From an uncultured bacterium (GTDB lineage Bacteria > Margulisbacteria > WOR-1 > CAVSGV01): a stretch of DNA of 64,000 nucleotides. Position numbers and translations under genes: made by a program. The notes beneath the pieces were generated by a model that had not been told where the DNA came from, searched no databases, and saw only the letters and a list, made by a program, of their open reading frames with translations. Positions 37,901 to 61,907 of the stretch are shown here, piece after piece. The stretch spans positions 6,070 to 70,069 of the forward strand of contig OY969425.1 in NCBI GenBank assembly GCA_963699255.1, given 5' to 3'. The stretch's first letter is position 1, and each line of letters opens with the position of its first letter.

Positions 37901-40900
37901 GACGGCGTTGACCACATATGAAGTTCAGATGAAAGCGCTGGATTCTATCGGCCGCAGCTCAGACTGGTCCGCCACAAACGAGGTGTTCACACTTGAGTGC
38001 CCGTGGGTGAGCCACGCCAAGACGTCAACGAACGAAGCGTACATATTATGGGGTTCCACGACGAGCTTTGAAGTGATAAACGCCACGACCTACGAAGCCA
38101 AAGCCAGAATAGCATCCAGCGCTTCGTGGGCTTCCATACCGTCGATAGGGGTTCCGCGATATAACCGCGATGATGCCACCATGTCTCCTACGCTGAACAT
38201 CAAACTAAGCAAGCTGCTTGGTTATGCTCCGACTACCGGCGTTACCTATGAGGTAATAATGAGGGCGGATGGACCGGGAGGATACTCCGACTGGTCGGCC
38301 ACACATGAGGTGTTCATGCTTGAGAGTCCATGGGTGGGGCACGCCAAGGTGGCGACCAATGAGGCGATAATATTGTGGGGCGCCACGACCAGTTTCGAGG
38401 TTCAAGGGGCTACTAGCTATCAGGCTATGGCATGCGCCAAGAACGGGGCATGGCAGCCGATAGTGAGCGTGCCTAACTTTAATATCGATGATGGGACCAT
38501 AAGCCCGACGGCTACAAGTATGTTCAATATCAAATTAAGCAAGTTGCTCGGATCAGCTCCGACACTGAACACTACTTATGAAGTAATGATGAGAGCGGTC
38601 GGATCCGCGGGTTACTCCGACTGGTCAGCCACTCATGAGGTATATATATTGGGGGCCCCATGGGTAAGCCACGCTAATGTTACAGCAACGCAGGAATATG
38701 TGTTATGGGGTCCGATAGGCCAAAGCGGCTTGAATGTGACCGGCGCGGTAAGTTATGAATATCAATACAAGAGAAAGATAGATACTTCATGGATCGGCGG
38801 CTCCGAGCCTCTCAGCAAGAGAGATAATATTTTGATGAGTTGCTTGAACTTCAGGTTGACCGGTTTGACGGCGTCAACCACATATGATGTTCAGGTGAGG
38901 TCGGTCGGGACATACGGTCGCTCCGACTGGTCTGCCACAGATGAAGTGTACACTCTTGAAAGCCCGTGGGTGAGCTACGCTAACATAACAACAAATGAAG
39001 CATCCATATTGTGGGGTTCAACGTCGAGCTTTGAAGTGATAAATGCGGCAACATATGAAGCTAAAGCCAGGATACAGGGCGGCGCTTCGTGGGATACCAT
39101 CTCGTCCATAGGTGTGCCGCGATATAACCGCGATGATCCAACTATGGCTCCAACATTGAACATAAAATTAAGCAAGCTGCTCGGAATTGCTCCGACATCG
39201 GGCGTTACTTATGAAGTAATTATGAGAGCGGATAATGCCGGCGGAGTTTCAGACTGGTCAGCCACAGCTGAGGTGTTCATGATAGGGACCCCGTGGGTAA
39301 GCCACGCGAAGGTTTCGTCTAAGGAAGCTTATGTGTTGTGGGGACCGATAGGTCAAAGCGGTCTGGATGTGACCGGAGCCTCATCTTATGAATGCCGATA
39401 CAGGATAAAGGGAGCGCAGGTGCCGTGGACAACGAAGATCGAGCCTCTCGGCAAGCAGGACGATCCGACAATGCCTGTATTGAACTTCGAGCTTAGCAAT
39501 TTAACGCCGTCCACAACATATCAGATCCAGATGAGGGCGGATGGAACAGGAGGGAACTCCGGCTGGTCGGCAACAGATGAGGTGTATACTCTGGAGACCC
39601 CGTGGGTGAACCATGCGAACGTCAAAAAGACAGAAGCATACATAATATGGGGATCGATAAGCGGAGGGTTGGACGTTCCCAACGCCGCCTATTACAAATA
39701 TCAATACAAGAAGCTGTCGTCCGCGGTATGGATGAGCGGTACTCAGCCTCTCGGCATGAAAGACGATCCATCAATGGCCGTGTTGAACTTCAGGCTGGCT
39801 GGATTAACGGCATCGACCTCGTATGAGGTCCAGATGAAGGCGGTAGACGCCCTCGGCGGCGAATCCGACTGGTCGGCCATTGATTATTTCATAACGATAC
39901 AAGGCCCGTGGTGGATAGATGTAAGCCATGTAACCGGAACATCCGCTCTTATTTCCTGGGATAATACGGCTCCGGGAGTGACACAGTATGATCTTAGGTA
40001 CAGCACGGCCCCGTCGGCGGAACTCGGGACAGCGGTCCTTACTACGGATGCCCAGCTTGCCGTCACCGGTCTTAGTACGAATACACAGTATTACGCGAAA
40101 GTGAGGGCGATAACCGCTGCCGGCCCGAGCAGCTGGACGAGTGTTGCGCCCTTCTTTACAAATCCTGTTGTAGGCCCGTCATGGATAGCTGCTTTCAATA
40201 CGACAACAACAGCAACAATGGTCACGTGGGAAGGTGTATCCGGCGCAACATCGTATGAAGTGAATTACGGGATAAATACCATGCCCATGGTGTGGACTTC
40301 CTGGGCTCCGTCGCCGCAGGATCAGAATTACGGCGGTCCTATTACAGGATTGAACCCGAGGACATGGTATAACCTGAGGGTCAAGCTGCACAGCGGCGCA
40401 AGCGCAAGCGAGTGGTCACCCACGGCGTTATTTTATACGATACCCGCTCCGACCGGTGTTACACAGATAGGCTCCACCGTGACCACAGCGACCATTACAT
40501 GGGAGCCCGTGGACATGGGCGGAGGAACGCCCGCACCCGCTTACGAGATAAGCTGGGGCGTGGATGCTACTGCTTCCGGAAGCGGTGATGCCGTAACGGG
40601 CAACATTAATTATACTATGACAGGATTAACGACCGGCTTAACATATTATGTGACGGTCAGGGCACGCGAGAGCTCCAATCCTTCCGATGGATACAGCGAT
40701 TGGTCCCCGTATCCGGCACTGCAGGTAGTGGCATCGGGAACCATGGGTCCTGTCGCTCCAGCGTGGTCAAGCCATTACCTGGTCACTTCGAATGAGGCGG
40801 TGGTGAACTGGGGAAGCGTTGCACTGGCGGACCATTATATCGTGCAATATAAGAAATTGACCGATGCGACCTGGGCCAGCGTAGAGGTGCTAAGCACATA

Positions 40901-43685
40901 TCAATACAATACAGCCGATACGAACCCGAATTGCCAGCTTACCAATCTTTCTCCAACCGTGACCTATCAGGTAAGGGTGATATCGGAGATAGGCGCGCTG
41001 CAAAGCTTCCCGTCCAATCCGCCGGATACTTTCTACACTCTGGAAAGGCCATGGGTGGACACCTATAAGCCTGACTCAACCCAGATATATGTTACCTGGG
41101 GGCCGGAGGTCAATACATCAGAAGTAGCTGTTCCGCTCGCGGACCATTATCTCCTGCAATACAGCCAGAACGGCGGAACATCATGGACGACTTATTCGGC
41201 CAAGATCCTGGATAACACCGTTCACGATGACGCGACCAACCTGAATTTGAACATATTATTGAGCGGCCTGATCACAAATTCAACATATGAGGTCCAGATG
41301 AGGACCGTTGACAGCACGGGCGGGTTGAGCGACTGGTCGGCCATCAAGACGTTCCACACGATAAGAGCGCCCTGGTGGATAGACGCGACCATTACGGGAG
41401 CCGACTCTGCCAACATATTCTGGGACAATGTGTCAGCTCCGCAGTATGAACTCAGGTACAGCCATAATCCTTCAGCTGAAGGTGCAGGCATGACCGTTGT
41501 TACTACTACGGATGCAAAGTGCGCTGTCGCCGGCCTAGATGTCAATTCCACGTATTATGCGAAGGTCAGGGCGCTGACAGTCGCCGGCGCGAGCGACTGG
41601 TCGCCCATAAAGATGTTCGGTACGTTGCCCGGACCGACCTGGATATCTAATTATTTGACAACGACCACCTCGACCTCGTTCACCTGGGAGGGGGTTGCCG
41701 GGACTTATGAGGTGAGCTACGGGACAAATACGGATGCTTCAGGCACCCTTATTTATCCGTTCATGCCGACCGATCCTTTTATCACAGGTATTACCGGGCT
41801 GACGCCGAAGACATGGTATCACGCGAAAGTGAGGGCTTATTCCAGCGGGAGCGTAAGCTCATGGTCGCCGATAGATGACTTTTTCACTATACCCGCTCCG
41901 AACAATGTTGCCTGGACAGGGTCCACTATAACCACAGCATCCATAACATGGGAGCCGGTGGACCTGGGCGGGACGCCGTGCACCTCTTATGAGGTAAGCT
42001 GGAGCCTGACGCCCGAGGTTACGGGAAGCGTCAGTATTATGACCAAAGAGGTTTACTCGACCATATCCGGCTTAACGACAGGTTCGACTTATTATGTGAA
42101 AGTCAGGGCGCGTGACGACGCCGACAGCGGATACAGCAGCTGGGCGCCGTATCCTCCTCTTACTATCGTGGCGACGGATCAAGCTACGATAAACGATGTG
42201 AACGCGGGTTATGGCGTTACAGGCGGCTGGAGAGGCACAACGGTCATGATCGAAGGGATGAATTTCGGTTCAACTATGGGGACCGTTTCATTTGGATCAA
42301 CGGTCGCGCAGCCCGGTTACTGGAAGAACAATGAAATAGCCGTGTCCGTGCCGCCGACCGCGGTTTCAGGACCTAATGCCATAACGGTCGTGACCAATGC
42401 CGGGGTCACCGCGACGAGCGTCCCGTCAACATTTTTCTTTACCGTGACCGACGGCGGGGTTGTTCTTGATGACTTTGAAGGCGGCGCGTGGCAGTTCTCC
42501 ACCTGCGAGGTCGGACCTCTGAACTCCGTGAGCGCAGTGAAGAACTACACCAACCCGCAGGAGAGGAACACTTATTTGACGGTTGAATGCAACGGGACCG
42601 CGGCTTATGAAATAGTGGGCGGGGTTACCCCGTACGGCGACCAGCCTACCGAGAATGGCATCGACATAAGTTCATGCAAGCAGATAAAGCTCTGGTTCAA
42701 AGGCGACGGCTCCACGAATATCGCCACATTCGAGCTGGGCGAAAGCAATATGGCGCCCGGAAACAATCCGACGAACCCGAATGCCGCGGAAATATGGGCA
42801 TATAATGTTCCGATCTCCATGTCTAATACGAACTGGCAGCAGATAACCATAAACCTGACCACTGAAGGGGCGGGCAGTTTCGCGGTTACCAACTACTGGC
42901 CCGGAGACGGCGTTCTTGAACTTAACATGATAAAGAGCTACCAGATACTTACGAGCGGCGGGAACCCGAAATCATACGCTGTAGATTATATTTTCGCGAC
43001 GACGGAAGCAGGCGGAGGCCCTGGGACAGTTAGCTATAATCTTCAGAATAATGCATCAGGGAACGTCAACTGGGTCGCATTTCCTTATACCGGTTCCGGA
43101 TATAACACGACGACTGATCTGGCTGCGGCGATAGGCAACACGATACCTATTGGTTCTCGTACCGCCTGGGTGGATGTTGTGGAAGTGAACGTATGGGATG
43201 CCACCGCCCAGTCTCAAACGACATATCAATCATGGTGGGATGGGACCATCTGGAATGATCTGGGCAGCAACGCGAATCTGGTAGTTGGAGATATGTATAC
43301 GGTTACGGTCCCAAGCAGCGCTAATGGGAATGCTTTCTCGATCAATGGGAACACGCCTGCAAGCGGTTCTGTTTCATTTACTCTTCAGAATAATGCATCC
43401 GGAAATGTCAACTGGATGACGATACCTGCGTATTTATCGGGGATCGTGACAACGACCGATCTGGCAACATCAATAGGCAATAAGATACCGATAGGTTCTC
43501 GCACCGCATGGGTGGATGTTGTGGAAGTGAACGTATGGGATCCCGTCGCTCAGTCTCAAACGACATATCAATCATGGTGGGATGGGACCATCTGGAATGA
43601 TCTGGGCAGCAATACGGCCGTGGTTACACCAGGCGCGTATAAAGTAACAGTTCCATCGTCAGCAAATGGCCTTGTTTGGCCATAA
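34971..43685 (+). CDS. giant cell-surface protein with ~20 fibronectin-III-like modules and a duplicated C-terminal domain (2904 aa as called; ~3045 aa if joined to 34547)
   Basis: ~100-aa modules of the form PWVSHAKVTS.EAYILWGP…Y.YQY…LS.LTASTTYEVQMRA…SDWSAT.EVYTLE recur about 20 times. The C-terminal ~110-aa unit NVNW.A.P…IGSRTAWVDVVEVNVWD…TTYQSWWDGTIWNDLGSN occurs twice. Confidence 0.8.
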   Translation: MANYDDSFAGAGRRVYILDVSNPSAMTVAGSFQVAASDSTVNLWGIAIKPDGTRLYVGDRYNYYGYYKVCVYNIAGANRTSPQHVTDINLGTTKNPTYLAVNTDGNRLFVKVDETADPGDGARKDVEMYDISGPTPVLMAEVYKITGNNYRSYLPGDHLPTGNDLDTRNGSEGMALSPNGWFMYFSNFNGPSGDGSLYYRDTLYGSSIANLTNGFDRTNPGDIWVSWGGCTQESPAIWSGWHSSDGIIATRNNKVYFTYSDVSVTPEYLSVPTTTDANIPPTAPKITYPLPQATNVSGFITWEPSLDDGIGPHGLTYTVETIEASTLEGGTTAWNHMAYTATGEVYTPLIGVKPGGTYYARVQAFDGTYTSPWSYTGPFTMDANFLLPPTWESSYLITSREAVIDWASVAAADSYIIQYRITGEATWHSTSAIASTYRYNSTDPNPNYRLTNLTPSATYEVNLIAVRSGVKSVPSSKPYVSFYTLEEPWVSHARVTSTEAYILWGPEVSTLELNVPNAVNYECWYRIQNAPVDWTRVTWPSGKQDSTTMTVLNAKLSGLTASTTYEVRMRTVDAYGGRSLWSPIHDVYTMERPWVSHAKVTSTEAYILWGPEESTSFNIPNAASYQYQYMKKTDTSWTTGPEPLSKRDDGTMPVLNFKLSNLTASTTYEVQMRALDVYGRTSDWSATDEVYTLESPWVSHAKTSTNESYILWGSSTSFEVRNATTYEARARITSSASWDAVPIKGVPRYNRDDGTMSPTLNIKLSSLLGFTPIVNTTYEVRMRARNAGGASDWSATNEVYVLGTPWVSAAKVTSKEAYILWGPVGETGLDVTGATSYQCWYRVQNAPVDWTKVTWPVGKQDDRTMATLNAKLSGLTASTTYEVQMRAVGSGGYSDWSPIYDVFTFERPWVNHANVKATEAYILWGPEESASLNIPNAASYVYQYRKPADTSWTSGPEPLSKQDDGTMPVLNFKLTGLTALTTYEVQMKALDSIGRSSDWSATNEVFTLECPWVSHAKTSTNEAYILWGSTTSFEVINATTYEAKARIASSASWASIPSIGVPRYNRDDATMSPTLNIKLSKLLGYAPTTGVTYEVIMRADGPGGYSDWSATHEVFMLESPWVGHAKVATNEAIILWGATTSFEVQGATSYQAMACAKNGAWQPIVSVPNFNIDDGTISPTATSMFNIKLSKLLGSAPTLNTTYEVMMRAVGSAGYSDWSATHEVYILGAPWVSHANVTATQEYVLWGPIGQSGLNVTGAVSYEYQYKRKIDTSWIGGSEPLSKRDNILMSCLNFRLTGLTASTTYDVQVRSVGTYGRSDWSATDEVYTLESPWVSYANITTNEASILWGSTSSFEVINAATYEAKARIQGGASWDTISSIGVPRYNRDDPTMAPTLNIKLSKLLGIAPTSGVTYEVIMRADNAGGVSDWSATAEVFMIGTPWVSHAKVSSKEAYVLWGPIGQSGLDVTGASSYECRYRIKGAQVPWTTKIEPLGKQDDPTMPVLNFELSNLTPSTTYQIQMRADGTGGNSGWSATDEVYTLETPWVNHANVKKTEAYIIWGSISGGLDVPNAAYYKYQYKKLSSAVWMSGTQPLGMKDDPSMAVLNFRLAGLTASTSYEVQMKAVDALGGESDWSAIDYFITIQGPWWIDVSHVTGTSALISWDNTAPGVTQYDLRYSTAPSAELGTAVLTTDAQLAVTGLSTNTQYYAKVRAITAAGPSSWTSVAPFFTNPVVGPSWIAAFNTTTTATMVTWEGVSGATSYEVNYGINTMPMVWTSWAPSPQDQNYGGPITGLNPRTWYNLRVKLHSGASASEWSPTALFYTIPAPTGVTQIGSTVTTATITWEPVDMGGGTPAPAYEISWGVDATASGSGDAVTGNINYTMTGLTTGLTYYVTVRARESSNPSDGYSDWSPYPALQVVASGTMGPVAPAWSSHYLVTSNEAVVNWGSVALADHYIVQYKKLTDATWASVEVLSTYQYNTADTNPNCQLTNLSPTVTYQVRVISEIGALQSFPSNPPDTFYTLERPWVDTYKPDSTQIYVTWGPEVNTSEVAVPLADHYLLQYSQNGGTSWTTYSAKILDNTVHDDATNLNLNILLSGLITNSTYEVQMRTVDSTGGLSDWSAIKTFHTIRAPWWIDATITGADSANIFWDNVSAPQYELRYSHNPSAEGAGMTVVTTTDAKCAVAGLDVNSTYYAKVRALTVAGASDWSPIKMFGTLPGPTWISNYLTTTTSTSFTWEGVAGTYEVSYGTNTDASGTLIYPFMPTDPFITGITGLTPKTWYHAKVRAYSSGSVSSWSPIDDFFTIPAPNNVAWTGSTITTASITWEPVDLGGTPCTSYEVSWSLTPEVTGSVSIMTKEVYSTISGLTTGSTYYVKVRARDDADSGYSSWAPYPPLTIVATDQATINDVNAGYGVTGGWRGTTVMIEGMNFGSTMGTVSFGSTVAQPGYWKNNEIAVSVPPTAVSGPNAITVVTNAGVTATSVPSTFFFTVTDGGVVLDDFEGGAWQFSTCEVGPLNSVSAVKNYTNPQERNTYLTVECNGTAAYEIVGGVTPYGDQPTENGIDISSCKQIKLWFKGDGSTNIATFELGESNMAPGNNPTNPNAAEIWAYNVPISMSNTNWQQITINLTTEGAGSFAVTNYWPGDGVLELNMIKSYQILTSGGNPKSYAVDYIFATTEAGGGPGTVSYNLQNNASGNVNWVAFPYTGSGYNTTTDLAAAIGNTIPIGSRTAWVDVVEVNVWDATAQSQTTYQSWWDGTIWNDLGSNANLVVGDMYTVTVPSSANGNAFSINGNTPASGSVSFTLQNNASGNVNWMTIPAYLSGIVTTTDLATSIGNKIPIGSRTAWVDVVEVNVWDPVAQSQTTYQSWWDGTIWNDLGSNTAVVTPGAYKVTVPSSANGLVWP
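36420..39900 (+). repeat. tandem array of ~300-bp FN3-module coding repeats
   Basis: Recurring ccgtgggtgagccacgcc / catatgaggtccagatgag strings. Several copies are more than 85% identical at DNA level, so assembly collapse is possible. Confidence 0.7.
43038..43680 (+). repeat. ~340-bp tandem duplication encoding the C-terminal domain of the giant protein
   Basis: cttcagaataatgcatc…gtcaactgg…ggttctcg(t/c)accgc(c/a)tgggtggatgttgtggaagtgaacgtatgggat occurs at ~43041 and ~43382. Confidence 0.75.
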
Positions 43686-43710: not shown

Positions 43711-46110
43711 ATGATAAAAATGAATTTAAATAGAGGAGGGAAGATAGGGCTGCTGATGCTTATGGTGGCGGCAGTTCTGTGCGTAACCGCCAGTGCGTCA
43801 TTTGCGGTCACGGATCAGACCTGGCTTAAAACCGCTGCCGGGGGGCAGGTTGCTGCGGCCGGGAATTGCCGTTTTATAGCCGTTGCAAAAGGCGATGACA
43901 GCTACATCATGACAGAGGACGACGGCGGCGCGAGTTATGCCGACTCGAACGGTGCATATATGGCAGCTGGAACTACAGGATTTGCCAAAACGGACAGCAC
44001 TCACTGGTCGACAGGATGGATCGTTGCAACGGATACTTACGCTATATGGGTTTCTTCGATCGCGGACGGTCAGACCGGCACTGCTTCAGGCACGATCGGC
44101 ACCACTTCACCGAATTACACTACTCCGGGGACCAACGCATCCCAGCTGTCTCTGGCAACGACCAGTTATATGGCCGCGCCGGGGAACTTTAAAGCATATG
44201 CCGGGGACAAAGTTGCATTATTGAAATGGGATGCGGTGACAGGCGCAACAAAGTACAGGATATTCAAGGGACCGGTAACCGGCAATTCCAACAGTCTGTA
44301 TTCAAAAGTGGGAACAACAACCGGTCTTTGTTATGAAGATACTTCCTTAACGGATGGAACGGCCTATTATTATATAGTTGTGCCTATGAACGGCAGCAAT
44401 TGGTACGGTGTTCATGCCAATCAGTTATCGGTGACACCAAGCGCAACAGGCGCGCCGACCATATCATTGAACCCCACGACCGGTATCGTAGGCTCATCGG
44501 TCACGATAACCGGCACAAATTTTGGGGCCGCACAGGGGACCGGGTTCGTTGAGTTCAATGGAGTGGTGGCTACGGTAACTTCATGGAGCGCTACTTCAGT
44601 GGTTGTAACAGTTCCGACCGGCGCGACAACGGGCCTTGTTTGTTTAGTTAACTCATCCAATGCCGCAAGCAATGGCGTCACTTTTACGGTTTCCACGCCC
44701 GGCACTCCTTCATTTACCAGTATTACTCCCTCAAGCGGATATAAGGGCGACACGCTCACAAGCGTTGCTATAGTGGGTGCGAATACGAACTTTGTTAATG
44801 GAACGACCACGGTGAGCATTAGCGGGAGCAATGTGACCGTAAGCAATGTTACCGTGACCAACTCCACACATTTAACCTGTGATATCGCCATAGCTGCCGG
44901 GGCAGCCGCGGGAGCAAGGGATGTTGTTGTTACGACCGGCAGCGAAGTCGTTACCGGGACAGGATCTTTCACGGTCAAAGCACCTGTATTCACGAGCATT
45001 TCTCCGGCCAGTGAAGCGGAGGGGACGACTACCAGCGTGACCATAGTTGGAACAGGAACGCACTTTACCGGAACGCCTACTGTGACCTTTAGCGGGACCG
45101 GCGTTACCGCCAGCGGCATTTCTGTAACCGATGCCACGCATTTAACATGTAATGCCGTCATCGTGGCCGTCACGGCATTGACAGCAAGGGATGTCACCGT
45201 AACGACCGGCAGTGAAACCGTTACCGGTACCGGCGTATTCACGGTCACTTCCGGAGCGCCGACCGTTACCAGCGTTTCTCCGTCAAGCGGGGCGTCGCCG
45301 GCTACGGGAATAACGATATCAGGAACGAATTTCAACGGCGTAACAGGTATAGTTATCGGCTCTACCGCGATAACCACATACACCGTTTCAAGCGCAACAT
45401 CCATAACCGGCGTTTCCATCCCTTCCGGATTGGCTGCCGGAGCATATGATATAAAGGTCACGAACGCGTCAGGGACGAGCTCAGTTGTGGCAGGGGATAA
45501 ATATACGGTAACACCCGGAGTGCCCACCGTTACGAGCGTTTCTCCGTCAAGCGGAGCGTCGCCGAATACGGGAATAACGATATCAGGAACGAATTTCAGC
45601 GGCGTAACAGGTATAGTTATCGGTTCTACCGCTATAACCACATACACCGTTTCAAGCGCAACATCCATAACCGGCGTTTCCATCCCCTCCGGACTGGCTG
45701 CCGGTATATATGATATACAGGTGACGAACTCGTCAGGTCAGAGCTCGATCACGGCAGGGGATAAATATACGGTTATCGCCGGCGGCGGCGGCAATGGCTC
45801 GGGCATATATGAAGGAGCCGGCGGAGTAATGATGGCTTATCCGAACCCGTTCAATCCGCTGGACAAGGCCAATCCGCTCAAGATGCTATTTAACGTGGCT
45901 ACCGGAGAAGCGGTTGATATTTACATCTTTGACACGAACGGAAGGGTGATCTACCAGGACAGGAACAGCGCGATCAATGCGGACAGAACGGTTACTTGGT
46001 CCGGAGACACAGCATATGGCGAAACAGTGGATAACGGGCTCTACCTTATAAGGGTCGTAAACAACGGAAAACTGGTCGCAAAGGGCAAGATCCTGGTAAT
46101 AAAGAATTGA
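43711..46110 (+). CDS. secreted IPT/TIG-repeat surface protein with a T9SS-type (Por_Secre_tail-like) C-terminal sorting domain (~800 aa)
   Basis: GGGAGGAAG RBS then MIKMNLNRGGKIGLLMLMVAAVLCVTASASFA signal peptide. Repeated ...SGTNF.GV…TYTV.S… Ig-like units. C-terminus reads VDIYIFDTNGRVIYQD…NGLYLIRVVNNGKLVAKGKILVIKN. Confidence 0.75.
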   Translation: MIKMNLNRGGKIGLLMLMVAAVLCVTASASFAVTDQTWLKTAAGGQVAAAGNCRFIAVAKGDDSYIMTEDDGGASYADSNGAYMAAGTTGFAKTDSTHWSTGWIVATDTYAIWVSSIADGQTGTASGTIGTTSPNYTTPGTNASQLSLATTSYMAAPGNFKAYAGDKVALLKWDAVTGATKYRIFKGPVTGNSNSLYSKVGTTTGLCYEDTSLTDGTAYYYIVVPMNGSNWYGVHANQLSVTPSATGAPTISLNPTTGIVGSSVTITGTNFGAAQGTGFVEFNGVVATVTSWSATSVVVTVPTGATTGLVCLVNSSNAASNGVTFTVSTPGTPSFTSITPSSGYKGDTLTSVAIVGANTNFVNGTTTVSISGSNVTVSNVTVTNSTHLTCDIAIAAGAAAGARDVVVTTGSEVVTGTGSFTVKAPVFTSISPASEAEGTTTSVTIVGTGTHFTGTPTVTFSGTGVTASGISVTDATHLTCNAVIVAVTALTARDVTVTTGSETVTGTGVFTVTSGAPTVTSVSPSSGASPATGITISGTNFNGVTGIVIGSTAITTYTVSSATSITGVSIPSGLAAGAYDIKVTNASGTSSVVAGDKYTVTPGVPTVTSVSPSSGASPNTGITISGTNFSGVTGIVIGSTAITTYTVSSATSITGVSIPSGLAAGIYDIQVTNSSGQSSITAGDKYTVIAGGGGNGSGIYEGAGGVMMAYPNPFNPLDKANPLKMLFNVATGEAVDIYIFDTNGRVIYQDRNSAINADRTVTWSGDTAYGETVDNGLYLIRVVNNGKLVAKGKILVIKN
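45241..45780 (+). repeat. two near-identical ~277-bp units encoding TIG domains
   Basis: ccgttac(c/g)agcgtttctccgtcaagcgg(g/a)gcgtcgcc…ataacgatatcaggaacgaatttc occurs at 45250 and 45527. Confidence 0.75.
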
Positions 46111-46423
46111 AGCCTTTTAAACCCTCCGTCAATAACTGACCCAGGGAAATTTCATTCGGACGTCCCGACGCTATAGTCGGGGCAAATGAACAGCCATGAT
46201 ACTAAAAGTTTGTCAACATTTTAATGGTTTTTCCCGTCCAATCTGTGGGGCTTCCGCTATTCTTTCATGTGATCGAACATCTCGAACGCGCGATATTTAC
46301 ATGTACATATATATACATAACAGACTTGATATCAGGATCGCGGGCTCTGGAAGCGCGAAAAGAATTTGATGGAAAATCGTCCGCCGGAGGCGGGCGGTAC
46401 CTTACCGGTAATTTTGGTGAAAA

Positions 46424-46456
46424 GTGAAATTTATCCAGCGATCGGTCGATAATAAT
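46424..46456 (+). promoter_or_regulatory. recurrent promoter-like motif, distal copy
   Basis: gtgaaatttatccagcgatcggtcgataataat. Confidence 0.35.
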
Positions 46457-46502
46457 AAGAGAGGAACTGACAGGATTGATCGGTCAGGGAAATTAAAGAA
46501 GA

Positions 46503-46538
46503 AGTGAAATTTAAAGTGGATTTTAACGATATATATAT
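46503..46538 (+). promoter_or_regulatory. recurrent promoter-like motif, proximal copy
   Basis: gtgaaatttaaagtggattttaacgatatatatata, 57 nt upstream of the 46595 start. Confidence 0.4.
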
Positions 46539-46594
46539 AGAGGGAAAGGATATAAGAGGATCAATATATCAGGCGATCAGGGGGAGAAATTCAA

Positions 46595-49183
46595 ATGCTT
46601 GGTAAAAGAAAATATTGTTTAATATTCGCGCTGTGCCTCGCGGCATGCCTCATGAGCTTTACCCCGGCTTTTTCCCTTACAGCCGACCCGATGGATCTCT
46701 CGGTGGGAGCAAGGTCAATGGGAATGGGCAACGCCTATGTCGCTCTCGGGGAGGATGCGGAGACCGTATTTGTTAACCCTGCGGGACTCGGGACCATATC
46801 CTCGCTAAAGCTCGGGAGCATGTACACGAGCCTTCTTGATGATGTGAATTATACGGTGATATCCGGCGTATACCCGATGGACAGTAATTCAGGCACGATA
46901 GGAGCCGGCATCATAAACCAGTCCGTATCCAGCATTCCTCTTTACAGCACCGAAGGGACGCCCGAAGGCAACGGCACGTACGGGGACAATGTCTTTTTTA
47001 TCTCTCACGGATTCGACCTGAGCAAAAAAGGGATTGCTGCAAATAACCTCTACGGTGGATATACATTAAAATATTTCATGAAGAGCGCGAGCGGCCAGGA
47101 TACCTCGGACATGACAGGCACCGGTTTTGCCGCGGATCTCGGGCTGTTATATAAACCAACAGGATCCATATCATATGGCTTGACCCTGCAGAACATACTT
47201 GCGGGCACAATGAACTATGCCAACGGGGATGAAGATGACATCGACTCCGCCATGAAGATCGGCACCAATATAAATCTCCTCGGCGACGCGCAGGGCGGAG
47301 ACGCTATTTATCAGAACGATTCAAAGGTGAATATGGCCCTTGAATATGACATAGGCCTCAGAGGGAAAGTCCCGGCCACGGCACACGTGGGATTTGAATA
47401 TAAACCCCAGCTGGGCGTTAACTTTATAGATAAGATATTAACTCTCAGGGCAGGCTTGAACCAGATCTCCAGCCCGACAGGTAACATAAGCGATGCCACA
47501 ATCGGCGTTGGCATAAATGTCCAGGGCGTGGAATTCAACTATGCCTACAGCCCGATGTACGAAGACATTCCGGGAACATCGACCCAGTACTTCTCTCTGT
47601 CATATGTGGGCGTGCCTGCGCCGGTTAAACCGATAGAAGAAATGAAGCCTCTGATCTCGCAGGCGCCTATGCCCATGATCTCCATGGTAACGCCCGATGA
47701 CAAACTCGTAACGAGCGCGTCAACGATCCTTGTCCAGGGCAGGGTATCGGTCCCCGCGAAGCTGGCAAAGCTGGAGATCAATAATGCGGGAGTGAACGTT
47801 TCCGATATAGGCGCGTTCGAGATGAACGTTCCGCTTTCTTCGACAGGCAAGCACCTGATAGTCGTCCGCGCGACGGATACAGCGGGAAAGACCGAGGAGC
47901 GCCAGATAAGAGTGGTAAGAATGTCGCAATTCACGGATGTTCCAAATAATCACTGGGCGGTAACCCCGATACAACAGCTTGCCACGGCAGGCCTGATAGA
48001 AGGGTATCCGACCGGGGCATTCCAGCCGGAAAGGGCGCTGTCCAGAGCGGAGCTTGCCACTCTTCTTGTGAAGAGCAAGGGCATAGAATCAGCTCAAGCT
48101 ACTGGAAGGATATTTAAAGATGTGCCTCCTTCCCACTGGGCGGCAAAATATGTGAAAGACGCGGTCGCAATGGGGCTTGTTACGGGGTACCCGGACAGGA
48201 CATTCAAGCCGAACAATAAGATAAGCAGAATGGAAGGCGTGGCGGTCCTCGCAAGGTTCGGCGAACTTCAGCAGGCCGGGCTTACAGCGAACCCGTATCC
48301 GGATGTGTCTGCCAGGTCCTGGGCGTCTCCTTTCATAGCCGCCGCAAAGACAGCCGGATTGCTTGATTATATCGGCAACAATAACTTTGAGCCCAGGAGA
48401 ACTCTTACAAGGGCTGAGGCAGCTGAGATGCTCGCAAAGACCACTTATGTCAAGGCAAAACTGGACAATCTTATGGACTGGACGGTCGGCTTTGCGCCTG
48501 AAACCGGAAAAGCGGTCGTGGCCGCAGCACCCGCTACGGTTACGGGACAAACCGCCAATGTAGTTGGATTGCCCGTGCCCGGCATGGGGACAATGGTAAC
48601 GCCGGGAACCGAGTTTTCCGATATACCGGATGATTTCTGGGCAAGTAACTCGGTCAAGTACATTGCCGCTGCAGGCGTCATGAAAGGGTATCCTGACGGT
48701 ACATTCAAGCCGAATAAGATCGTGAGCAGGGCGGATCTCGCTTCAATACTCGTAAAAGCAAGAAGGATCCCGGTCAATAAAGTTGCCGTGACGCAGTATT
48801 CGGATGTTTCAAGGCAGAACGTGGCGGCGCCGTACATAAAGGCCGCGGTCGTTTCCGGATATTTAACGGGAAGAAAAGGCAGCAAGTTCGAGCCGAACAA
48901 AGGGGCGTCAAGGGCCGAAGCCGTCGCCGCGCTGGTAAAGTTCGACAAAATGGAAGTGCCGACAGGACTTCGCGAGGGGCCATTCTCGGACATGAAAGCT
49001 AAAGACTGGTCATCAAAGTACGTCGCCGCAGCGAAAGATGCCGGAATGCTGGAGTTCCTGCAAGGGGATAACTTTGAAGCGAACAAGCCCATAACCAGGG
49101 CGGAGCTTGCGGAGATGATCGCAAAGACAAGTTTCGGACAGGCGAAGATAGATCAAGTGAAATCTGCCGGCATATCTCAATAA
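46595..49183 (+). CDS. outer-membrane protein with an N-terminal PorV/FadL-like beta-barrel region and ~6 C-terminal SLH domains (862 aa)
   Basis: Signal peptide MLGKRKYCLIFALCLAACLMSFTPAFS. The N-terminal region has DLSVGARSMGMGNAYVALGEDAETVFVNPAGLG, a PorV/PorP/FadL-like signature. Repeated SLH motifs follow, of the form FTDVP..HWA…I…A.GL..GYPDGTF.P…SRAE.A.LL. Confidence 0.8.
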   Translation: MLGKRKYCLIFALCLAACLMSFTPAFSLTADPMDLSVGARSMGMGNAYVALGEDAETVFVNPAGLGTISSLKLGSMYTSLLDDVNYTVISGVYPMDSNSGTIGAGIINQSVSSIPLYSTEGTPEGNGTYGDNVFFISHGFDLSKKGIAANNLYGGYTLKYFMKSASGQDTSDMTGTGFAADLGLLYKPTGSISYGLTLQNILAGTMNYANGDEDDIDSAMKIGTNINLLGDAQGGDAIYQNDSKVNMALEYDIGLRGKVPATAHVGFEYKPQLGVNFIDKILTLRAGLNQISSPTGNISDATIGVGINVQGVEFNYAYSPMYEDIPGTSTQYFSLSYVGVPAPVKPIEEMKPLISQAPMPMISMVTPDDKLVTSASTILVQGRVSVPAKLAKLEINNAGVNVSDIGAFEMNVPLSSTGKHLIVVRATDTAGKTEERQIRVVRMSQFTDVPNNHWAVTPIQQLATAGLIEGYPTGAFQPERALSRAELATLLVKSKGIESAQATGRIFKDVPPSHWAAKYVKDAVAMGLVTGYPDRTFKPNNKISRMEGVAVLARFGELQQAGLTANPYPDVSARSWASPFIAAAKTAGLLDYIGNNNFEPRRTLTRAEAAEMLAKTTYVKAKLDNLMDWTVGFAPETGKAVVAAAPATVTGQTANVVGLPVPGMGTMVTPGTEFSDIPDDFWASNSVKYIAAAGVMKGYPDGTFKPNKIVSRADLASILVKARRIPVNKVAVTQYSDVSRQNVAAPYIKAAVVSGYLTGRKGSKFEPNKGASRAEAVAALVKFDKMEVPTGLREGPFSDMKAKDWSSKYVAAAKDAGMLEFLQGDNFEANKPITRAELAEMIAKTSFGQAKIDQVKSAGISQ

Positions 49184-49299
49184 AAGAATAAGCCCTAAAT
49201 CCTAAGCACTAAACCCTAAACAATCCCAAGATCAGAAGATCGAAATTCCGCTTGACAAAATATACCCAATACCTGTATGGTGTATCATAGCGTATAAAT

Positions 49300-49560
49300 A
49301 TGGCTAATACAGGCAGGGAAGAAATAATAAATCGGCTTAACCGCATAAAAGGGCAGGTGGAGGGGATACTGCGCATGGTGGACCGTCCGAAGCCCGCGGT
49401 AGAGATATTCCATCAGATCACGGCGGCCAGGAAGGCCCTTGATTCAACGGGGAGACTGCTGCTGGAGAATTATATCCAGGAAAATTTAAGCGGTGTATCA
49501 AGGTCAAAAGGGGATAGCGATAAGATCAGGGAAATACTCGAAATAATGGAGAAGTTCTAA
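49300..49560 (+). CDS. CsoR/RcnR-family metal-sensing transcriptional repressor
   Basis: Contains the CsoR-family (DUF156) pattern LNRIKGQVEGILRMVDRPKPAVEIFHQITAARKALDSTGRLLLENY. Confidence 0.8.
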   Translation: MANTGREEIINRLNRIKGQVEGILRMVDRPKPAVEIFHQITAARKALDSTGRLLLENYIQENLSGVSRSKGDSDKIREILEIMEKF

Positions 49561-49592
49561 TGGGGCAATTAAAAATGAACAATTTCTCAATT

Positions 49593-49640
49593 AACAACAA
49601 GGTGTCGCTTTCGCGACATAATATATTATTCTTTGTTGTT
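49593..49640 (+). terminator. hairpin plus T-rich tract after csoR
   Basis: aacaacaaggtGTCGCtttcGCGACataatatattattctttgttgtt. Inner stem is 5 bp, outer AACAACAA/TTGTTGTT. Confidence 0.4.
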
Positions 49641-49690
49641 CATTGTGTCATTGTTAATTGTTCATTGTCCATTTAAATTGAAGGGGGTGT

Positions 49691-51834
49691 ATGTGTATGG
49701 TAGAATGTAACAAAATGAAGAGATTTGAAAGGGTGGGCATTGTAGGTCTGGCGCTGTTCCTGTCCCTCGCAAGCCTGCCGGCCGGCAGGCGGGGGGAGGC
49801 TTTTGCGTTCTCATCCCCTCCATCAAAAGAAAAGTCGGAAGCGCCAAAAGTGGTGAGCAGGTTCAGTGCGCCTCCTGCCGAAACAGATTGGCCCACCTTC
49901 CACGGGGATGTGGACAGGAACGGCATATCTCTTGCTAAATACATCAAGCCGCCGCTTTCTGTTAAGTGGGGATACTCCACCGGCGGGAACATATGGTCTT
50001 CTCCAGCCGTGGTCGCGGACACGCTCTTTGTCGGGTCGTCTGACGGCAAGCTGTACAGCCTGGACGTCGGGGACGGCAATATGCGCTGGGCGTTCAAGAC
50101 GGGAGGCGCGGTATTCTCTTCTCCGGCAGTCGACAAAGGGAACGTATATTTCGGTTCGTCGGATCACATGTTTTACGCCCTGGATGCCGATACAGGGGAC
50201 CTGAAATGGTTTTTTGAGACCGGCGACCAGATAACATCATCACCCGCGGCCTATGAAGGCAGGATTTATTTCGGTTCGTGGGACGGCTCCATGTATGCCT
50301 TAACGGATAGCGGAGGACTGAAGTGGAAATTCCAGACTGACGGCGCCATATATTCATCTCCCGCTCTGGCTTACAAGAAGGTCTTTTTCGGCTCATCTGA
50401 CGGCAAGGTGTACGCGCTGGACAGGGAAAAAGGAACCCTGTCTGGACGTTCCAGACAGACGACAACATTTCCGCGACCCCGTCCATCTCGGGGAAGGTCA
50501 TTTATATCGGGTCATGGGACGGCAGCATGTACGCTCTGGGCAGCGAGGACGGGAAGCTGTTATGGAAATTCAGGACCGGGGGAGGGGTTTATTCTTCGCC
50601 GGCGATATTGGACGATACGATCATTTTTGGTTCGTATGACGGCAAGCTATACTGCCTTGACAAACAAACGGGCGCGCTAAGGTGGTTTTATGCCTCAAAA
50701 GATTCCGTTTACCATTCATCGCCGGTCGTTGCCAACGGCGTTGTGTATGTGGGGCTTGGCTACAAGAACAAGGTACAGGCATTTAACGCAAGGACCGGAG
50801 AATATTTGTGGAGCTATCCGACAGGAGCGTCCGTAGGGGCCACTCCGGCTATTTCCGAAACCAACATGTACATAGCCGCGTCGGACGGCAAAATATACGC
50901 CTTCGGGGACATTGTGCCTCCGGATGCAAAAGTTAATCCGCTTAAGATGGCGCACAATCGATATGATTTTGTTGTCAGCTGGTCGGGGGAGGACAAGGGG
51001 GGATCCGGTATAAGGTCCTACGATGTCCAGTTCAGGTCGGGAGCCGGAGAGCCGTGGCAGAACTGGCTTACGAACGTGGCGACCACGTTCGCCGTTTTCG
51101 GCCCAAATGATCCTGTAGATGTCAGGGATAATACCGTTTATTATTTCCAGGCGCGGGCCCACGATCATGCGGGGAATGTCGGCGCTTACGCCGGCGGCGA
51201 CGGGGACACTTACACGATCATCGATCTGACCCCGCCGAGGATCGCGAAAGTAAGCATAAATAATGTTCAGGTGCAGTCCGGAAGTTTCATAAGCGCCAAA
51301 CCGCTCATCCAGGCTTCCATAAGCGACAATGTTTCCGTGGATCCGGAGAGCCTGAAAGTCTATATCGATAATGCCGAATTCATCCCGAACAGCTTCATAG
51401 GAGGGATCATGAAGTACCAGCACAAGATCCCGCTTACGCCCGGGAAGCACAATATAAAGGTCGTCGCGGAGGACACTTCCGGCAATTGGGCTGATACGTG
51501 GGAGGTAAAGAGCGTGAGGGTTTCTGAAGGGATAGAGGCGGCGGATATCTCGGCTTATCCTACGCCGTTCAATCCTCTGGCCGGCCCTATATATATTTCT
51601 TACAGGCTTAACGCCAGCGCGGAAACCAACATATACATTTATGAGAGATCCGGCTCCCTGATTTTTTCGATGAAATTCAGCGAGGGGGCGAACGGAGGAA
51701 AGCGCGGCTGGAACAAAATAGCATGGAACGGCGTATCGGCATCCGACAGCATCGCGGGGAACGGGGAATATTCCTATAAGATAGTCGCCAACAGGAATCT
51801 GGTCGGAAAAGGTCAGATAATAATACAAAAATAA
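49691..51834 (+). pseudogene. PQQ-like beta-propeller repeat protein with a T9SS-type C-terminal domain, interrupted by a single frameshift
   Basis: ORFs 49691..50680 and 50527..51834 carry the same repeat, G.LYALD..TG.L.W.F.TGG.I.SSPA. The frame switches at gaaaaaggaaccctgtctgg (~50440). The 3' frame is open from ~50446 and reads VWTFQTDDNISATPSISGKVIYIGSWDG. C-terminus: ETNIYIYERSGSLIF…GKGQIIIQK. Confidence 0.65.
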
Positions 51835-57380: not shown

Positions 57381-58562
57381 ATGAACTATCGCCGCGCGGT
57401 CGCCTATCTGGAGAGCTTTCAGAAAATGGGCATAAGGCTTGGGCTTGAAAGGATCCGCACCCTGCTTTCGCATCTCGGAGCCCCCCAGGATGCTTACAAG
57501 ATGATCCACATTGCCGGAACGAACGGAAAAGGTTCCATTGCCGCCATGCTTTCATCGATACTTAAACAGGCCGGATATAATGTAGGGCTTTACACTTCGC
57601 CGCATCTCGTCGATTACACCGAGAGGATAAGGATAAATGAGAAGGACGTCTCGAGGGAAAAATTCGCCGCGGCCGTTGAGGCGGTTAAAAAGGTCATCAA
57701 CAAGCTGCCGGAGATGGACCTTACGGAATTCGAGGTCCTGACCGCCGCATCGTTCTTGTTGTTATCCCGTGAAAAAGTTGAGATAGTCATCGTTGAGACC
57801 GGGCTTGGCGGCAGTCTTGACGCGACGAACGTAATAACCCCCATATTATCGATCATCACTAATATCGATTATGACCACATGGATGTTCTGGGCGGCACTA
57901 TAAGCAAGATAGCAAAGGAAAAGGGCGGGATCATAAAGAACCATGTCCCGCTTGTCACCGGCGAAAAAAAAGTGTGGCGGATCCTGCATAGTATATGTAA
58001 GGAAAAGAGATGCAGGTTCATCAGGTCCGTCAGGGAAAAGGTTAAATATGTCCCGTTACTGGGGAGCCATCAGGCGGAGAACACGAAGGTTGTGCTTGCC
58101 AGCGTACGGGTTTTAAGGGGTTTGGGGCTCAATATCAGCGATAAGCAGGTGGACAGAGGGCTTCGGCGCACTTTCTGGCCAGGAAGGCTTCAGGTCGTCT
58201 CAAAAAGTCCTCTGACTATCCTTGACGGGGCGCATAATCCCGCGGGAGCGAAAGCTCTGGTTGAATATCTGTCAGGATTGAAGAAGAAGTTCACTTTTGT
58301 TATCGGGATGCAGAGGAACAAGGATATTGATAGTGTTATCAAAATATTGATGCCTGTCGCGGACAGGTTCATTGTTGTAAAGTCGAGCAATCCGAATGCC
58401 GTGTCGAAAGATGTCCTTGCGAAGAAGATAGAGAGGGCAGGGGGGCTGGCGGTGATCGCGAAGGATCTGAAGGGGGCACTTTCGATGGCGAAAAAGACAG
58501 GGAATCCCGTCTGTGTCGCCGGCTCGCTTTATTTAATAGGAGATGCGTTAAAGAAGTTTTAA
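57381..58562 (+). CDS. folC: folylpolyglutamate synthase / dihydrofolate synthase
   Basis: HIAGTNGKGS P-loop, YTSPHLVDYTERI and DGAHNPAGAKAL are typical of FolC (Mur ligase family). Confidence 0.85.
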   Translation: MNYRRAVAYLESFQKMGIRLGLERIRTLLSHLGAPQDAYKMIHIAGTNGKGSIAAMLSSILKQAGYNVGLYTSPHLVDYTERIRINEKDVSREKFAAAVEAVKKVINKLPEMDLTEFEVLTAASFLLLSREKVEIVIVETGLGGSLDATNVITPILSIITNIDYDHMDVLGGTISKIAKEKGGIIKNHVPLVTGEKKVWRILHSICKEKRCRFIRSVREKVKYVPLLGSHQAENTKVVLASVRVLRGLGLNISDKQVDRGLRRTFWPGRLQVVSKSPLTILDGAHNPAGAKALVEYLSGLKKKFTFVIGMQRNKDIDSVIKILMPVADRFIVVKSSNPNAVSKDVLAKKIERAGGLAVIAKDLKGALSMAKKTGNPVCVAGSLYLIGDALKKF

Positions 58563-58801
58563 TTTGAGAAGGATTTAAAAGGTCCTTATTTAAGGAGTTG
58601 TCGGATGATGCTCGTTGCAATGGCATTTACTCTAATTCATAGGCACAGTCTGGGTAAAGAGAGTTTGAGAAGGCGAAGGAATGGAATATTAGGATTCCGA
58701 ACGAAAAAGAGTATAATGAGTTGAAATATCTTATTTTGTTAGGTGTACTAATGTGATTAGCGGAAATGAATCAACTAAAAAACGACTATTGGAGGTAAAT
58801 C

Positions 58802-60343: not shown

Positions 60344-60350
60344 TGGACAG

Positions 60351-60383
60351 GTGATTATCTATGCTAATCACTCTTCTTCTTCA
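60351..60383. terminator. hairpin between convergent genes
   Basis: GTGATTAtctatgcTAATCAC is a 7-bp stem followed by tcttcttcttc. It sits 8 nt after the 58802..60343 stop and upstream of the - strand MTase 3' end. Confidence 0.45.
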
Positions 60384-60433
60384 GGAGTGCTAGGGAGGCA
60401 GGCTAAGAATCCTTAAATATGCTCTCTAACTTG

Positions 60434-60994
60434 CTATTTCTTGATATTTATTGCCACTGACCGGCTGAACCAGATCTTAGGTTCTTCAAGAACATTAAAC
60501 CCAAGGCTTTTTATCGTTTCTATCGACTTGCTAAAGTCTTTCTTTGAAACATGGAACTTCGGCTCAACTATTAGGACTTTCCCGTCCGGCTTCAATAACG
60601 TCTTTATTTCCTTCAACAACGCCAGCTGGTCGGGGATCTCGTGAAGGACATAAAATATCAAAATAAAGTCGAACTTTTCCGTTAAGCCTAACTTGTCCTT
60701 CGGGGTTATATATAGCTCTATGTTCTTAAGGCCCGAACGCTCGATCTTTTTCTTCAGTATCTCCAGCATCCCATCCTGCAGATCAGCCGCAACCACCTTG
60801 CCGGAAGCTCCCACCATCTTCGCCATATCCATGGTGAAAAATCCCGGGCCGCAGCCAAGATCAAGCACCGTCATCCCTTCATTAATATATGGCTTTAATA
60901 TCCGCTTCGGATCATGGGCCCGCCTGCGTATCCCCATATCCAATATGCCCGAGAGTATTACCGGGCAGATTTTGTAGTTTATATCTAATTTCAT
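60434..60994 (-). CDS. class I SAM-dependent methyltransferase (UbiE/SmtA-like)
   Basis: Motif I VLDLGCGPGFFTMDMA, followed by the acidic motif VVAADL. Confidence 0.75.
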   Translation of the reverse strand: MKLDINYKICPVILSGILDMGIRRRAHDPKRILKPYINEGMTVLDLGCGPGFFTMDMAKMVGASGKVVAADLQDGMLEILKKKIERSGLKNIELYITPKDKLGLTEKFDFILIFYVLHEIPDQLALLKEIKTLLKPDGKVLIVEPKFHVSKKDFSKSIETIKSLGFNVLEEPKIWFSRSVAINIKK

Positions 60995-61181
60995 TTTTCC
61001 TTCCCGCTTTCTTTATTATATTTATCGTTCATCAGCTTGTCTATATTTCATTTGTTGAACTATTTTTCAGGTGAGAGTTAACATGGTGGAAGCTAATTTG
61101 GGCTTATCGGCAAGATCAAAACGCGTTTCTGCGCTTTAGATATACTATGGCATAGTAATAAGCCAATCAGAAACGCTTGAC

Positions 61182-61505: not shown

Positions 61506-61598
61506 ATTAAGAGGTTGACAATGGGATTTTTGGCTATTAGTATGACTGCATCGGTCTCGCAAGAGGGGTTAACCCGTTATTCTTTAAGCCATAAATAC

Positions 61599-61630: not shown

Positions 61631-61654
61631 GATGAGAAGAGGAGAATTGATCCG

Positions 61655-61843: not shown

Positions 61844-61907
61844 CAGATGGGACTTCAGAACAAACCTTTTATTCAGATCGGCTCGGGAAATACTCCAAAA
61901 CCCTAGC

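Follow-up and report, generated by a model that had tools for sequence, protein, structure and literature searches.

In Porphyromonas gingivalis the peptidoglycan-binding protein PorE, the 14-stranded FadL-family barrel PorP and PG1035, a protein with an intact C-terminal domain (CTD), form a complex (Gorasia et al., 2022, PMC9143113). In Flavobacterium johnsoniae SprB is anchored by SprF, and porP-like genes adjoin the genes of cargo proteins and often porE-like genes as well (PMC9143113). PorE has been proposed to be a general tether between the outer membrane and peptidoglycan (PMC12204202). Type IX secretion systems (T9SS) are assigned in reviews to the Fibrobacteres–Chlorobi–Bacteroidetes (FCB) superphylum only. 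OmpM, defined operationally as S-layer homology (SLH) domains plus a beta-barrel, has been reported in Marguli- and Saganbacteria, and the text of that report is silent on whether proteins that join a PorV-type barrel to SLH domains were included (Witwinowski et al., bioRxiv 10.1101/2021.05.31.446380). Here we describe a locus of this kind in a 64-kb stretch of DNA (hereafter the window) from contig OY969425.1, which belongs to an uncultured bacterium of the WOR-1 lineage of Margulisiibacteriota. Its central gene encodes an 862-residue protein, which we call the anchor protein, and the neighbouring genes encode secreted proteins that end in T9SS type-A-like CTDs.

The PorE–PorP–PG1035 complex and the SprF–SprB pair are the closest described systems, and by its gene context the anchor protein is likelier to resemble PorP–PorE–cargo or PorQ–PorZ than a mobile pool of PorV. 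In the P. gingivalis complex, as in the arrangement predicted here, peptidoglycan is connected, by way of a wall binder and then a 14-stranded barrel of the FadL family, with a surface protein whose CTD is intact. As in the PorP-like and PorE-like clusters, cargo genes adjoin dedicated barrel genes, and there are several modules per genome. There are also differences. In Margulisiibacteriota barrel and wall binder form one protein, whereas PorE is a separate lipoprotein, and the binder consists of SLH domains rather than the OmpA_C-like domain of PorE. The CTD is type-A-like (TIGR04183), in contrast with the type B cargo of Bacteroidota, and the barrel scores as a member of the PorV/PorQ family in a host phylum that lies outside the FCB superphylum. 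The use of SLH domains fits a Terrabacteria-type envelope, where OmpM, and not Pal or OmpA, is the usual tether.

We consider it probable, though well short of certain, that the locus encodes a docking platform, fixed and tethered to the wall, for surface proteins that bear a CTD, that is, a display and tethering module of two parts. The features on which this proposal is built are as follows.

43711–46110, + strand: candidate cargo 1, a secreted IPT/TIG-repeat protein of 799 residues with a C-terminal T9SS type-A-like CTD (TIG, E 9.7e-24, four stretches; TIGR04183; signal peptide read from the sequence)
45838–46107, + strand: CTD of cargo 1, residues 710–799 (alignment of 26 CTDs, TIGR04183, AlphaFold2, Foldseek)
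46595–49183, + strand: anchor protein, 862 residues, with signal peptide, PorV/PorQ-family barrel, Ig spacer and two SLH triplets (hidden Markov models, AlphaFold2, Foldseek)
46676–47614, + strand: FadL/PorV-type outer-membrane barrel of 14 strands, residues 28–340, including an N-terminal hatch-like segment (NF033709, AlphaFold2, Foldseek, PDB profile search)
47672–47920, + strand: Ig-like beta-sandwich spacer (Glucodextran_B), residues 360–442, predicted to be periplasmic (PF09136, AlphaFold2)
47930–48460, + strand: SLH triplet 1, residues 446–622 (PF00395, profile search, motif positions)
48614–49147, + strand: SLH triplet 2, residues 674–851, found only in the subfamily of about 860 residues (PF00395, alignment A2, motif positions)
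49715–51834, + strand: candidate cargo 2, a secreted PQQ-type beta-propeller with an Ig region and a CTD, 706 residues once repaired (PQ_2/Beta-prop matches; interrupted by a 1-nt gap in an A-run at about 50430)
51535–51831, + strand: CTD of cargo 2 (CTD model positions 3–98, the sequence itself being in the training set; PorU C-terminal region, E 2e-12; FlgD_ig, 20 bits)

The anchor protein joins a PorV/PorQ-family barrel to SLH domains

The anchor protein begins with a Sec-type signal peptide, MLGKRKYCLIFALCLAACLMSFTPAFS, followed by LTADP. The NCBIfam model of the PorV/PorQ family, NF033709, matches residues 34–337 with 101.1 bits (E 8.6e-29) and is covered from position 8 to position 324 of 326; its curated cutoff, set at subfamily level, is 90 bits. 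The score above cutoff, the near-full-length coverage of the profile and the barrel fold place the protein in the PorV/PorQ family at subfamily level. Scores against the equivalog models for PorV, PorQ and PorV2 (NF033710, NF033711 and NF052325) were 34.5, 39.9 and 40.0 bits, against cutoffs of 250, 220 and 325 bits, and judged by these models the anchor protein is not an orthologue of any of the three. The FadL/TodX family PF03349 gave no match at E ≤ 0.01, so that the likeness to FadL and TodX is at the level of fold only, and UPF0164 matched weakly (15.6 bits).

An AlphaFold2 model of residues 1–450, built with 40 homologues, has a mean predicted local distance difference test (pLDDT) score of 82.6. 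A signal helix and a short segment at the N-terminus are followed by 14 main strands, which lie within residues 72–337; a linker modelled with low confidence then leads to an Ig sandwich whose strands lie at residues 362–442 (pLDDT about 90). When the barrel was compared with the PDB by Foldseek, F. johnsoniae PorV came first (8gl6_F and 6h3i_F; E 2e-9 and 7e-9; template modelling (TM) scores 0.61 and 0.66 on the target) and TodX and FadL ranked after it. A search of PDB sequences with the family sequence profile likewise returned PorV (6h3i_F, E 1.6e-9). The sequence-only reading had described the N-terminal region as PorV/FadL-type, and the family model, the 14-stranded fold and the structural match bear it out. 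PorV (6H3I, 8GL6) is the best match of the barrel by both sequence profile and fold; however, it lacks a periplasmic extension like that of the anchor protein and is regarded as mobile between the translocon and the attachment complex, and the anchor protein falls below the equivalog cutoffs.

Residues F59, N61, P62, A63 and G64 are invariant across the family and form the motif F-x-NPAG, which we equate with the FadL-superfamily hatch motif NPA. The 14-stranded fold and the N-terminal hatch motif are shared with FadL/TodX and with the spirochaete FadL-like proteins of UPF0164. Some relatives of the barrel have C-terminal periplasmic extensions of the TPR type, and the FadL-like proteins of Treponema also carry C-terminal periplasmic extensions. 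The anchor family differs from FadL and TodX in its PorV/PorQ membership and in its gene context, which is one of surface proteins rather than catabolic operons.

The barrel is followed by a Glucodextran_B Ig domain (PF09136, residues 360–441, 35.6 bits, cutoff 27) and then by SLH domains, which match PF00395 above its gathering score (E 1.1e-65). Pfam gives five SLH stretches; direct reading together with a regular expression gives six motifs, starting at residues 446, 507, 568, 674, 735 and 797. These are arranged as two triplets with an Ala/Val/Gly/Pro-rich linker between them. An SLH triplet is the typical unit that binds secondary cell-wall polymer. In the PDB the family profile matched the SLH domain of Bacillus anthracis Sap (3pyw, E 8e-22) and OmpM (8bym, E 4e-11). 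Because the barrel has an even number of strands, both of its termini would be periplasmic, and the model therefore predicts that the Ig spacer and the SLH domains lie in the periplasm, where the wall can be reached.

In OmpM, Slp and SlpA of diderm Terrabacteria (8BYM) an outer-membrane barrel and periplasmic SLH domains are likewise found in one polypeptide; the SLH domains are similar, and the same lineages use SLH over OmpA or Pal. However, the anchor protein does not have the OmpM/Slp layout of an N-terminal SLH domain, a stalk and a C-terminal porin barrel. Its order is reversed, it has no coiled-coil stalk, the family has three or six SLH motifs as against one, the barrel is of the 14-stranded FadL/PorV type rather than a porin, and the gene is paired with that of a CTD cargo protein. 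Both the six C-terminal SLH repeats and the order opposite to that of OmpM (barrel, Ig, six SLH motifs, against the N-terminal SLH of the OmpM literature) had been recognized in the sequence-only reading, and both stand.

The neighbouring proteins end in T9SS type-A-like CTDs

The tail of cargo 1 (residues 710–796) matches TIGR04183 with 30.8 bits in the full scan and 36.6 bits when the tail is used alone, against a cutoff of 23. Its motifs are, in order, YPNPFNP, IYIFD..GR, W.G, G.Y..RV and KGKILVIK. The tail is below the Pfam cutoffs, both for PF18962 (16.6 against 27) and for FlgD_ig. The PQQ tail gave no match to TIGR04183 at E ≤ 0.01 when the whole fragment was scanned, but the tail of its orthologue aligns from end to end with the TIG tail (E 1.8e-10). 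Among the CTDs of neighbouring genes, 21 of 26 match TIGR04183 at E ≤ 1e-3. A profile made from the 26 tails was compared with PDB sequences, and the best matches were the CTDs of PorU (6za2) and PorZ (5m11).

The AlphaFold2 model of the cargo 1 CTD (pLDDT 92.6) has seven strands in a beta-sandwich like those of solved CTDs. Foldseek matched it to PorZ (5m11, TM 0.67), PorU (6za2, TM 0.68) and the CTD of NucA (8glk_D, TM 0.73 on the target), with further matches to the CTDs of RemA (8gl6_D) and RgpB (7pq4). The best match of the barrel (8gl6 chain F, PorV) and a top match of the CTD (8gl6 chain D, the RemA CTD) are chains of one solved, substrate-bound T9SS complex. By hidden Markov model (HMM) and by predicted fold, both tails are T9SS type-A-like CTDs. 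The sequence-only reading had compared them with such domains, and this is upheld by TIGR04183 for the TIG tail, by the match to the PorU region and by homology for the PQQ tail, and by the CTD fold. It was also right that the barrel gene stands between two genes for proteins with these tails, although the tails are about 90 residues long and not about 70. The pairs PorV–PorU and PorQ–PorZ of the P. gingivalis attachment complex are similar in that the CTDs of PorU and PorZ are the best matches of the tails; they are unlike the present case in that a sortase or A-LPS pathway is not evident in the Margulisiibacteriota loci.

The fusion and its CTD partner are conserved in Margulisiibacteriota

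Among 5.8 billion proteins searched, the barrel–Ig–SLH architecture was present in more than 100 clusters, at 33–85% identity. They fall into two size classes, of about 630 residues with one SLH triplet and about 860 residues with two. Those members that have names are called ‘PorV/PorQ family protein’ or ‘S-layer homology domain-containing protein’ and come from Candidatus Margulisbacteria, Saganbacteria and WOR-1. An independent Logan contig encodes an identical 862-residue protein. We scanned loci in one genome per GTDB species, using alignment A2 of 11 sequences, and found 27 loci with the fusion, all of them from Margulisiibacteriota/Saganbacteria/WOR-1 or from metagenome-assembled genomes (MAGs) that are closest to the window (59–69% identity). 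The GTDB representatives scanned do not include the genome of the window itself, to which the best match has 69% identity.

Upstream sequence is available for 22 of the loci, and in 21 of these the barrel gene is directly preceded, on the same strand, by a gene whose product ends in the same CTD. The gap between the two genes is usually −4 to 60 nt, and they often overlap or are a few bases apart. Outside the CTD the upstream proteins vary greatly: they have 570–1900 residues, with domains of the TIG, Big, He_PIG, cadherin-like or CBM kind. Two such modules lie in tandem in one WOR-1 genome, and three other MAGs have two each on separate contigs. When the CTD HMM was run on all open reading frames (ORFs) of at least 60 codons in the window and in these loci, it matched only genes adjoining the barrel gene. 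As the model was built from adjacent genes, these matches arise by construction, and the informative part is the lack of any others.

The same phylum also has stand-alone PorV-like barrels of about 330–360 residues, encoded at a housekeeping locus between sepF/proC/yggT and rpsB-tsf. These are directly preceded by genes for proteins of about 110 residues that consist of a signal peptide and a CTD only (L045, 9633–9968, ahead of a barrel gene at 10001–11029; L046, 4391–4720). The CTD-only mini proteins were outside the training set of the HMM and matched it with E 2e-29 and 7e-26. There are about 60 clusters of them, some named ‘T9SS type A sorting domain-containing protein’ from Candidatus Margulisiibacteriota by NCBI. 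Since a CTD-only protein has no passenger to export, in these pairs it must be the CTD that the barrel works with; read in this way, the mini proteins argue against a purely cleaved-signal role of the CTD.

The sequence-only reading suggested that a PorV-like shuttle tethered by SLH domains would be an unusual envelope solution outside Bacteroidota. The fusion is not peculiar to one genome: fusion and CTD pairing are conserved across Candidatus Margulisiibacteriota/Saganbacteria/WOR-1, and NCBI already labels members as ‘PorV/PorQ family protein’. The parts are thus already labelled by automated annotation. Our literature searches returned no paper that describes a PorV–SLH fusion, its pairing with CTD genes or CTD-only proteins.

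Relatives with other wall-binding modules

Some relatives of the barrel carry OmpA (P0157 and P0171), LysM (P0104 and P0105) or TPR extensions in place of SLH. To judge from these sequences, the wall-binding module of the barrel family is interchangeable. The gene for the OmpA-fused barrel P0171 (L047, 1–9635) is directly preceded by that of a 5426-residue Big-repeat protein with a FlgD_ig/Por_Secre_tail end. In the same locus a pilin-like N_methyl gene follows the barrel gene.

In an Elusimicrobia MAG (L049, 3831–5278) the gene for a 183-residue Por_Secre_tail protein lies directly upstream of that for P0150, a stand-alone barrel of the PorV/PorQ family. The pairing of CTD and barrel is thus also present in another phylum outside the FCB superphylum. 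A further stand-alone relative of the barrel has no CTD neighbour, which means that outside Margulisiibacteriota the two are often but not always paired. We also considered fusions of the barrel with FlgD_ig (P0155 and P0182) as ‘Rosetta-stone’ evidence for contact between CTD and barrel. These were rejected because an Ig domain after the barrel would be periplasmic, and because the domains are without YPNPFNP. A mirror-tree comparison of how CTD and barrel diverge was set aside as well, since their common phylogeny would confound it.

Proposed mechanism and alternative explanations

In the docking platform that we propose, the 862-residue protein would place its 14-stranded PorV/FadL-type barrel in the outer membrane with its C-terminus back in the periplasm. 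There the Ig spacer would lead to the two SLH triplets, which by analogy with the characterized SLH domains of Sap and OmpM would bind a peptidoglycan-associated polymer. The barrel would then be a fixed docking site for the CTD, of about 90 residues, of the adjacently encoded protein or proteins, here the TIG-repeat protein and probably also the PQQ-propeller protein. The CTD would be retained as a docking domain and not cleaved as an export signal, and the docked proteins would be exposed at the cell surface. A continuous chain would thus run from the cell wall through SLH domains, barrel and CTD to the surface protein, and the outer membrane would be tied to the wall as well. The module would work like the PorE–PorP–type B cargo complex of Bacteroidota, with the wall binder fused to the barrel and SLH replacing the OmpA-like domain. 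A related contig has lptF/G and lptB-like genes, and lptF/G supports an outer membrane that contains lipopolysaccharide (LPS), in a diderm envelope.

Several points weigh against this scheme. The evidence for contact between CTD and barrel consists of gene order and homology. The gap between the genes for cargo 1 and the anchor protein is 484 nt and includes a weak promoter-like site, which makes co-transcription in the window uncertain; the promoter and terminator scan of the locus gave nothing informative above chance level. The fold of the barrel is about as similar to the FadL and TodX transporters (E about 1e-7). The CTD HMM was trained on adjacent genes, so that its independent contribution lies in the lack of other matches and in the matches to the mini proteins, and one locus (L028) has no adjacent CTD gene. 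Additionally, if there is no SprA-like translocon, the scheme does not explain how the cargo would get past the outer membrane.

A canonical T9SS encoded elsewhere in the genome would account for some of the same observations. The barrel would then act as PorV and collect type-A CTD cargo at SprA/Sov, a PorU-type sortase would remove the CTD, and the cargo would be put on LPS. Family-level membership of PorV/PorQ and the position of PorV as best structural match agree with this, as do CTDs that reach TIGR04183 and resemble those of T9SS substrates, and the NCBI naming of the mini proteins. However, the shuttle that such a system needs would be immobilized by six SLH domains, the PorV, PorQ and PorV2 equivalog scores are far under their cutoffs, and mini proteins that consist of a CTD make no sense as cleaved signals. 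Families of the T9SS core (SprA, GldK/L/M/N, PorT and PorU) were not found in the 64-kb window of the 1.77-Mb source contig, in the gene tables of four related loci or, for 119 flanking proteins compared with NCBIfam, among the 25 families that occurred most often, which are weak tests that do not span a whole genome; about 0.5 Mb of related-locus flanks, again a part of the genomes only, also had no T9SS core gene that we could see. Reviews confine T9SS to the FCB superphylum, and we found no paper that links Margulisbacteria to it. We regard a canonical T9SS as quite improbable here. The tethered ‘shuttle’ is likewise the least likely part of the sequence-only reading: with six SLH domains holding it, the barrel is not free to diffuse, and the gene context points to a fixed one-to-one anchor.

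It is also unlikely, if less so, that the anchor protein is simply a tether between outer membrane and wall, a FadL-like channel for hydrophobic uptake, or both, OmpM-like in function and with CTD neighbours that are unrelated, co-regulated secreted proteins. In favour of this explanation, the SLH domains closely resemble those of Sap and OmpM, the barrel fold matches FadL and TodX strongly, the NPA motif of the FadL family is invariant, and the OmpM of Witwinowski et al., reported in Margulis- and Saganbacteria, is SLH plus any beta-barrel. Tethering is in fact common to this explanation and to the docking platform, and the two disagree on cargo docking only. On that point, a plain tether or channel does not explain why 21 of 22 loci keep an upstream gene that ends in a CTD while the rest of that gene varies freely, why there are no CTD genes elsewhere in the flanks, why stand-alone paralogous barrels are paired with CTD-only proteins or why the OmpA-fused relative keeps the pairing. 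Finally, the anchor gene might be a chimeric ORF in which assembly or gene calling has joined a barrel gene to an SLH gene, and the two or more frameshifts in the window do indicate an imperfect assembly. The same full-length architecture is, however, present in the more than 100 clusters, which come from independent assemblies (NCBI, JGI, ENA and Logan), and the Logan protein is identical. These results exclude a chimeric ORF for practical purposes, and we give an artefact almost no weight.

A broader and rather doubtful conjecture can also be put forward. Pairs of a CTD and a FadL-type barrel might form an autonomous, T9SS-independent module that displays or caps proteins at the outer membrane in phyla distant from Bacteroidota, namely Margulisiibacteriota, Elusimicrobia and a lineage that uses OmpA, with SLH, OmpA or LysM holding the barrel to the wall according to lineage. 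The T9SS attachment and PorP–PorE modules might then be descendants or relatives of an older and wider docking system. In Margulisiibacteriota the SLH version might be a main link between outer membrane and wall, and giant Ig-repeat proteins might be kept in place by it as a coat resembling an S-layer.

The two partners of cargo recognition in T9SS, a barrel of the PorV type and a CTD like those of type A, are encoded here by conserved neighbouring genes in a phylum that is sister to Cyanobacteria. T9SS itself is believed to be restricted to the FCB superphylum. The pairing bears on the origin of the recognition between CTD and barrel and on whether it is workable without SprA/GldKLMN. The anchor family would also give diderm Terrabacteria a second way of linking outer membrane and wall through SLH domains, opposite in topology to OmpM, and surveys that look for OmpM as ‘SLH plus any barrel’ could mix both kinds of tether. 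The CTD-only mini proteins and the swappable SLH, OmpA and LysM modules offer simple test cases for CTD–barrel docking in uncultured lineages.

Gene layout and other features of the window

The locus is made up of four co-directional genes and one small intervening gene. Besides the two cargo genes and the anchor gene these are:

34565–43685, + strand: giant secreted FN3/TIG-repeat protein of about 3000 residues, first gene of the surface-protein operon, without a CTD (signal peptide at 34565; frame change at about 34870–34900; the rest is ORF 34971–43685)
49300–49560, + strand: metal-sensing repressor of the CsoR/RcnR/FrmR type, encoded between the anchor protein and cargo 2 (PF02583, E 5e-21)

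The domain scan of the giant protein gave fn3 (E 1e-76, nine stretches) and a TIG domain. The true start of its gene is the signal-peptide ATG at 34565, which is in a different frame from ORF 34971–43685. Homologues are encoded upstream of the CTD gene in L002 and L005. The position of the CsoR-like gene is also kept in L002 and L005, whereas the gene is missing in L003 and L004, where thiC directly follows the anchor gene.

The PQQ gene is split in the window into ORFs 49691–50680 and 50527–51834, the frames changing inside GGGAAAAAGGAACCC at about 50430. Comparison with the intact orthologue in L002 shows one base to be missing from the A-run, and a one-base insertion restores a protein of 706 residues; the orthologues in L002 and L005 are intact and have 713 and 703 residues. 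The sequence-only reading had treated the ‘49691 protein’ as a single flanking PQQ protein. The PQQ product does end in a CTD, but it is encoded by a frameshift-split gene rather than one ORF, and the csoR-like gene stands between it and the anchor gene. As the PQQ gene and the giant FN3 gene are both intact in relatives, the sequences suggest that the two frameshifts (at about 34870–34900 and about 50430) are homopolymer sequencing errors and that the genes are not pseudogenes.

A gene for glutamine–fructose-6-phosphate transaminase, glmS, was seen near the anchor gene in some loci. Matches were found in 4 of the 119 flanking proteins scanned (L007, L015, L017 and L019). Its placement a few genes downstream of the anchor gene was read from ORF sizes, and GATase and SIS matches in Pfam confirm it for L007. 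The placement may reflect a link to the supply of envelope sugars or only local synteny.

Scans of the 64-kb window with Rfam and for tRNA genes gave no matches. Upstream of the surface-protein operon, positions 2498–33878 (+ strand) hold about 15 large co-directional ORFs of 207–1459 residues with almost no matches in Pfam, NCBIfam or PADLOC, and the PADLOC scan of this block gave nothing significant. Its G+C content is 0.44–0.47, compared with 0.50–0.54 in the flanks. The exceptions are a divergent PurA-like protein (13588–15162, 291 bits against a cutoff of 402), a region with NDK- and guanylate-kinase-like matches within 8038–11052, a methyltransferase (12584–13327) and a GH26-like region (20707–23892). 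The block sits between leuC and the surface-protein operon. In L006 the distance from the end of leuC, which lies upstream, to the first cargo-like gene is about 1.7 kb, and by this comparison the block in the window looks like an inserted island. Downstream of the locus, the stretch 58000–62000 also has a low G+C content (0.40–0.41) and includes a 513-residue ORF (58802–60343) with a weak ORC/Cdc6-like AAA match; it may be a mobile or defence-related insertion.

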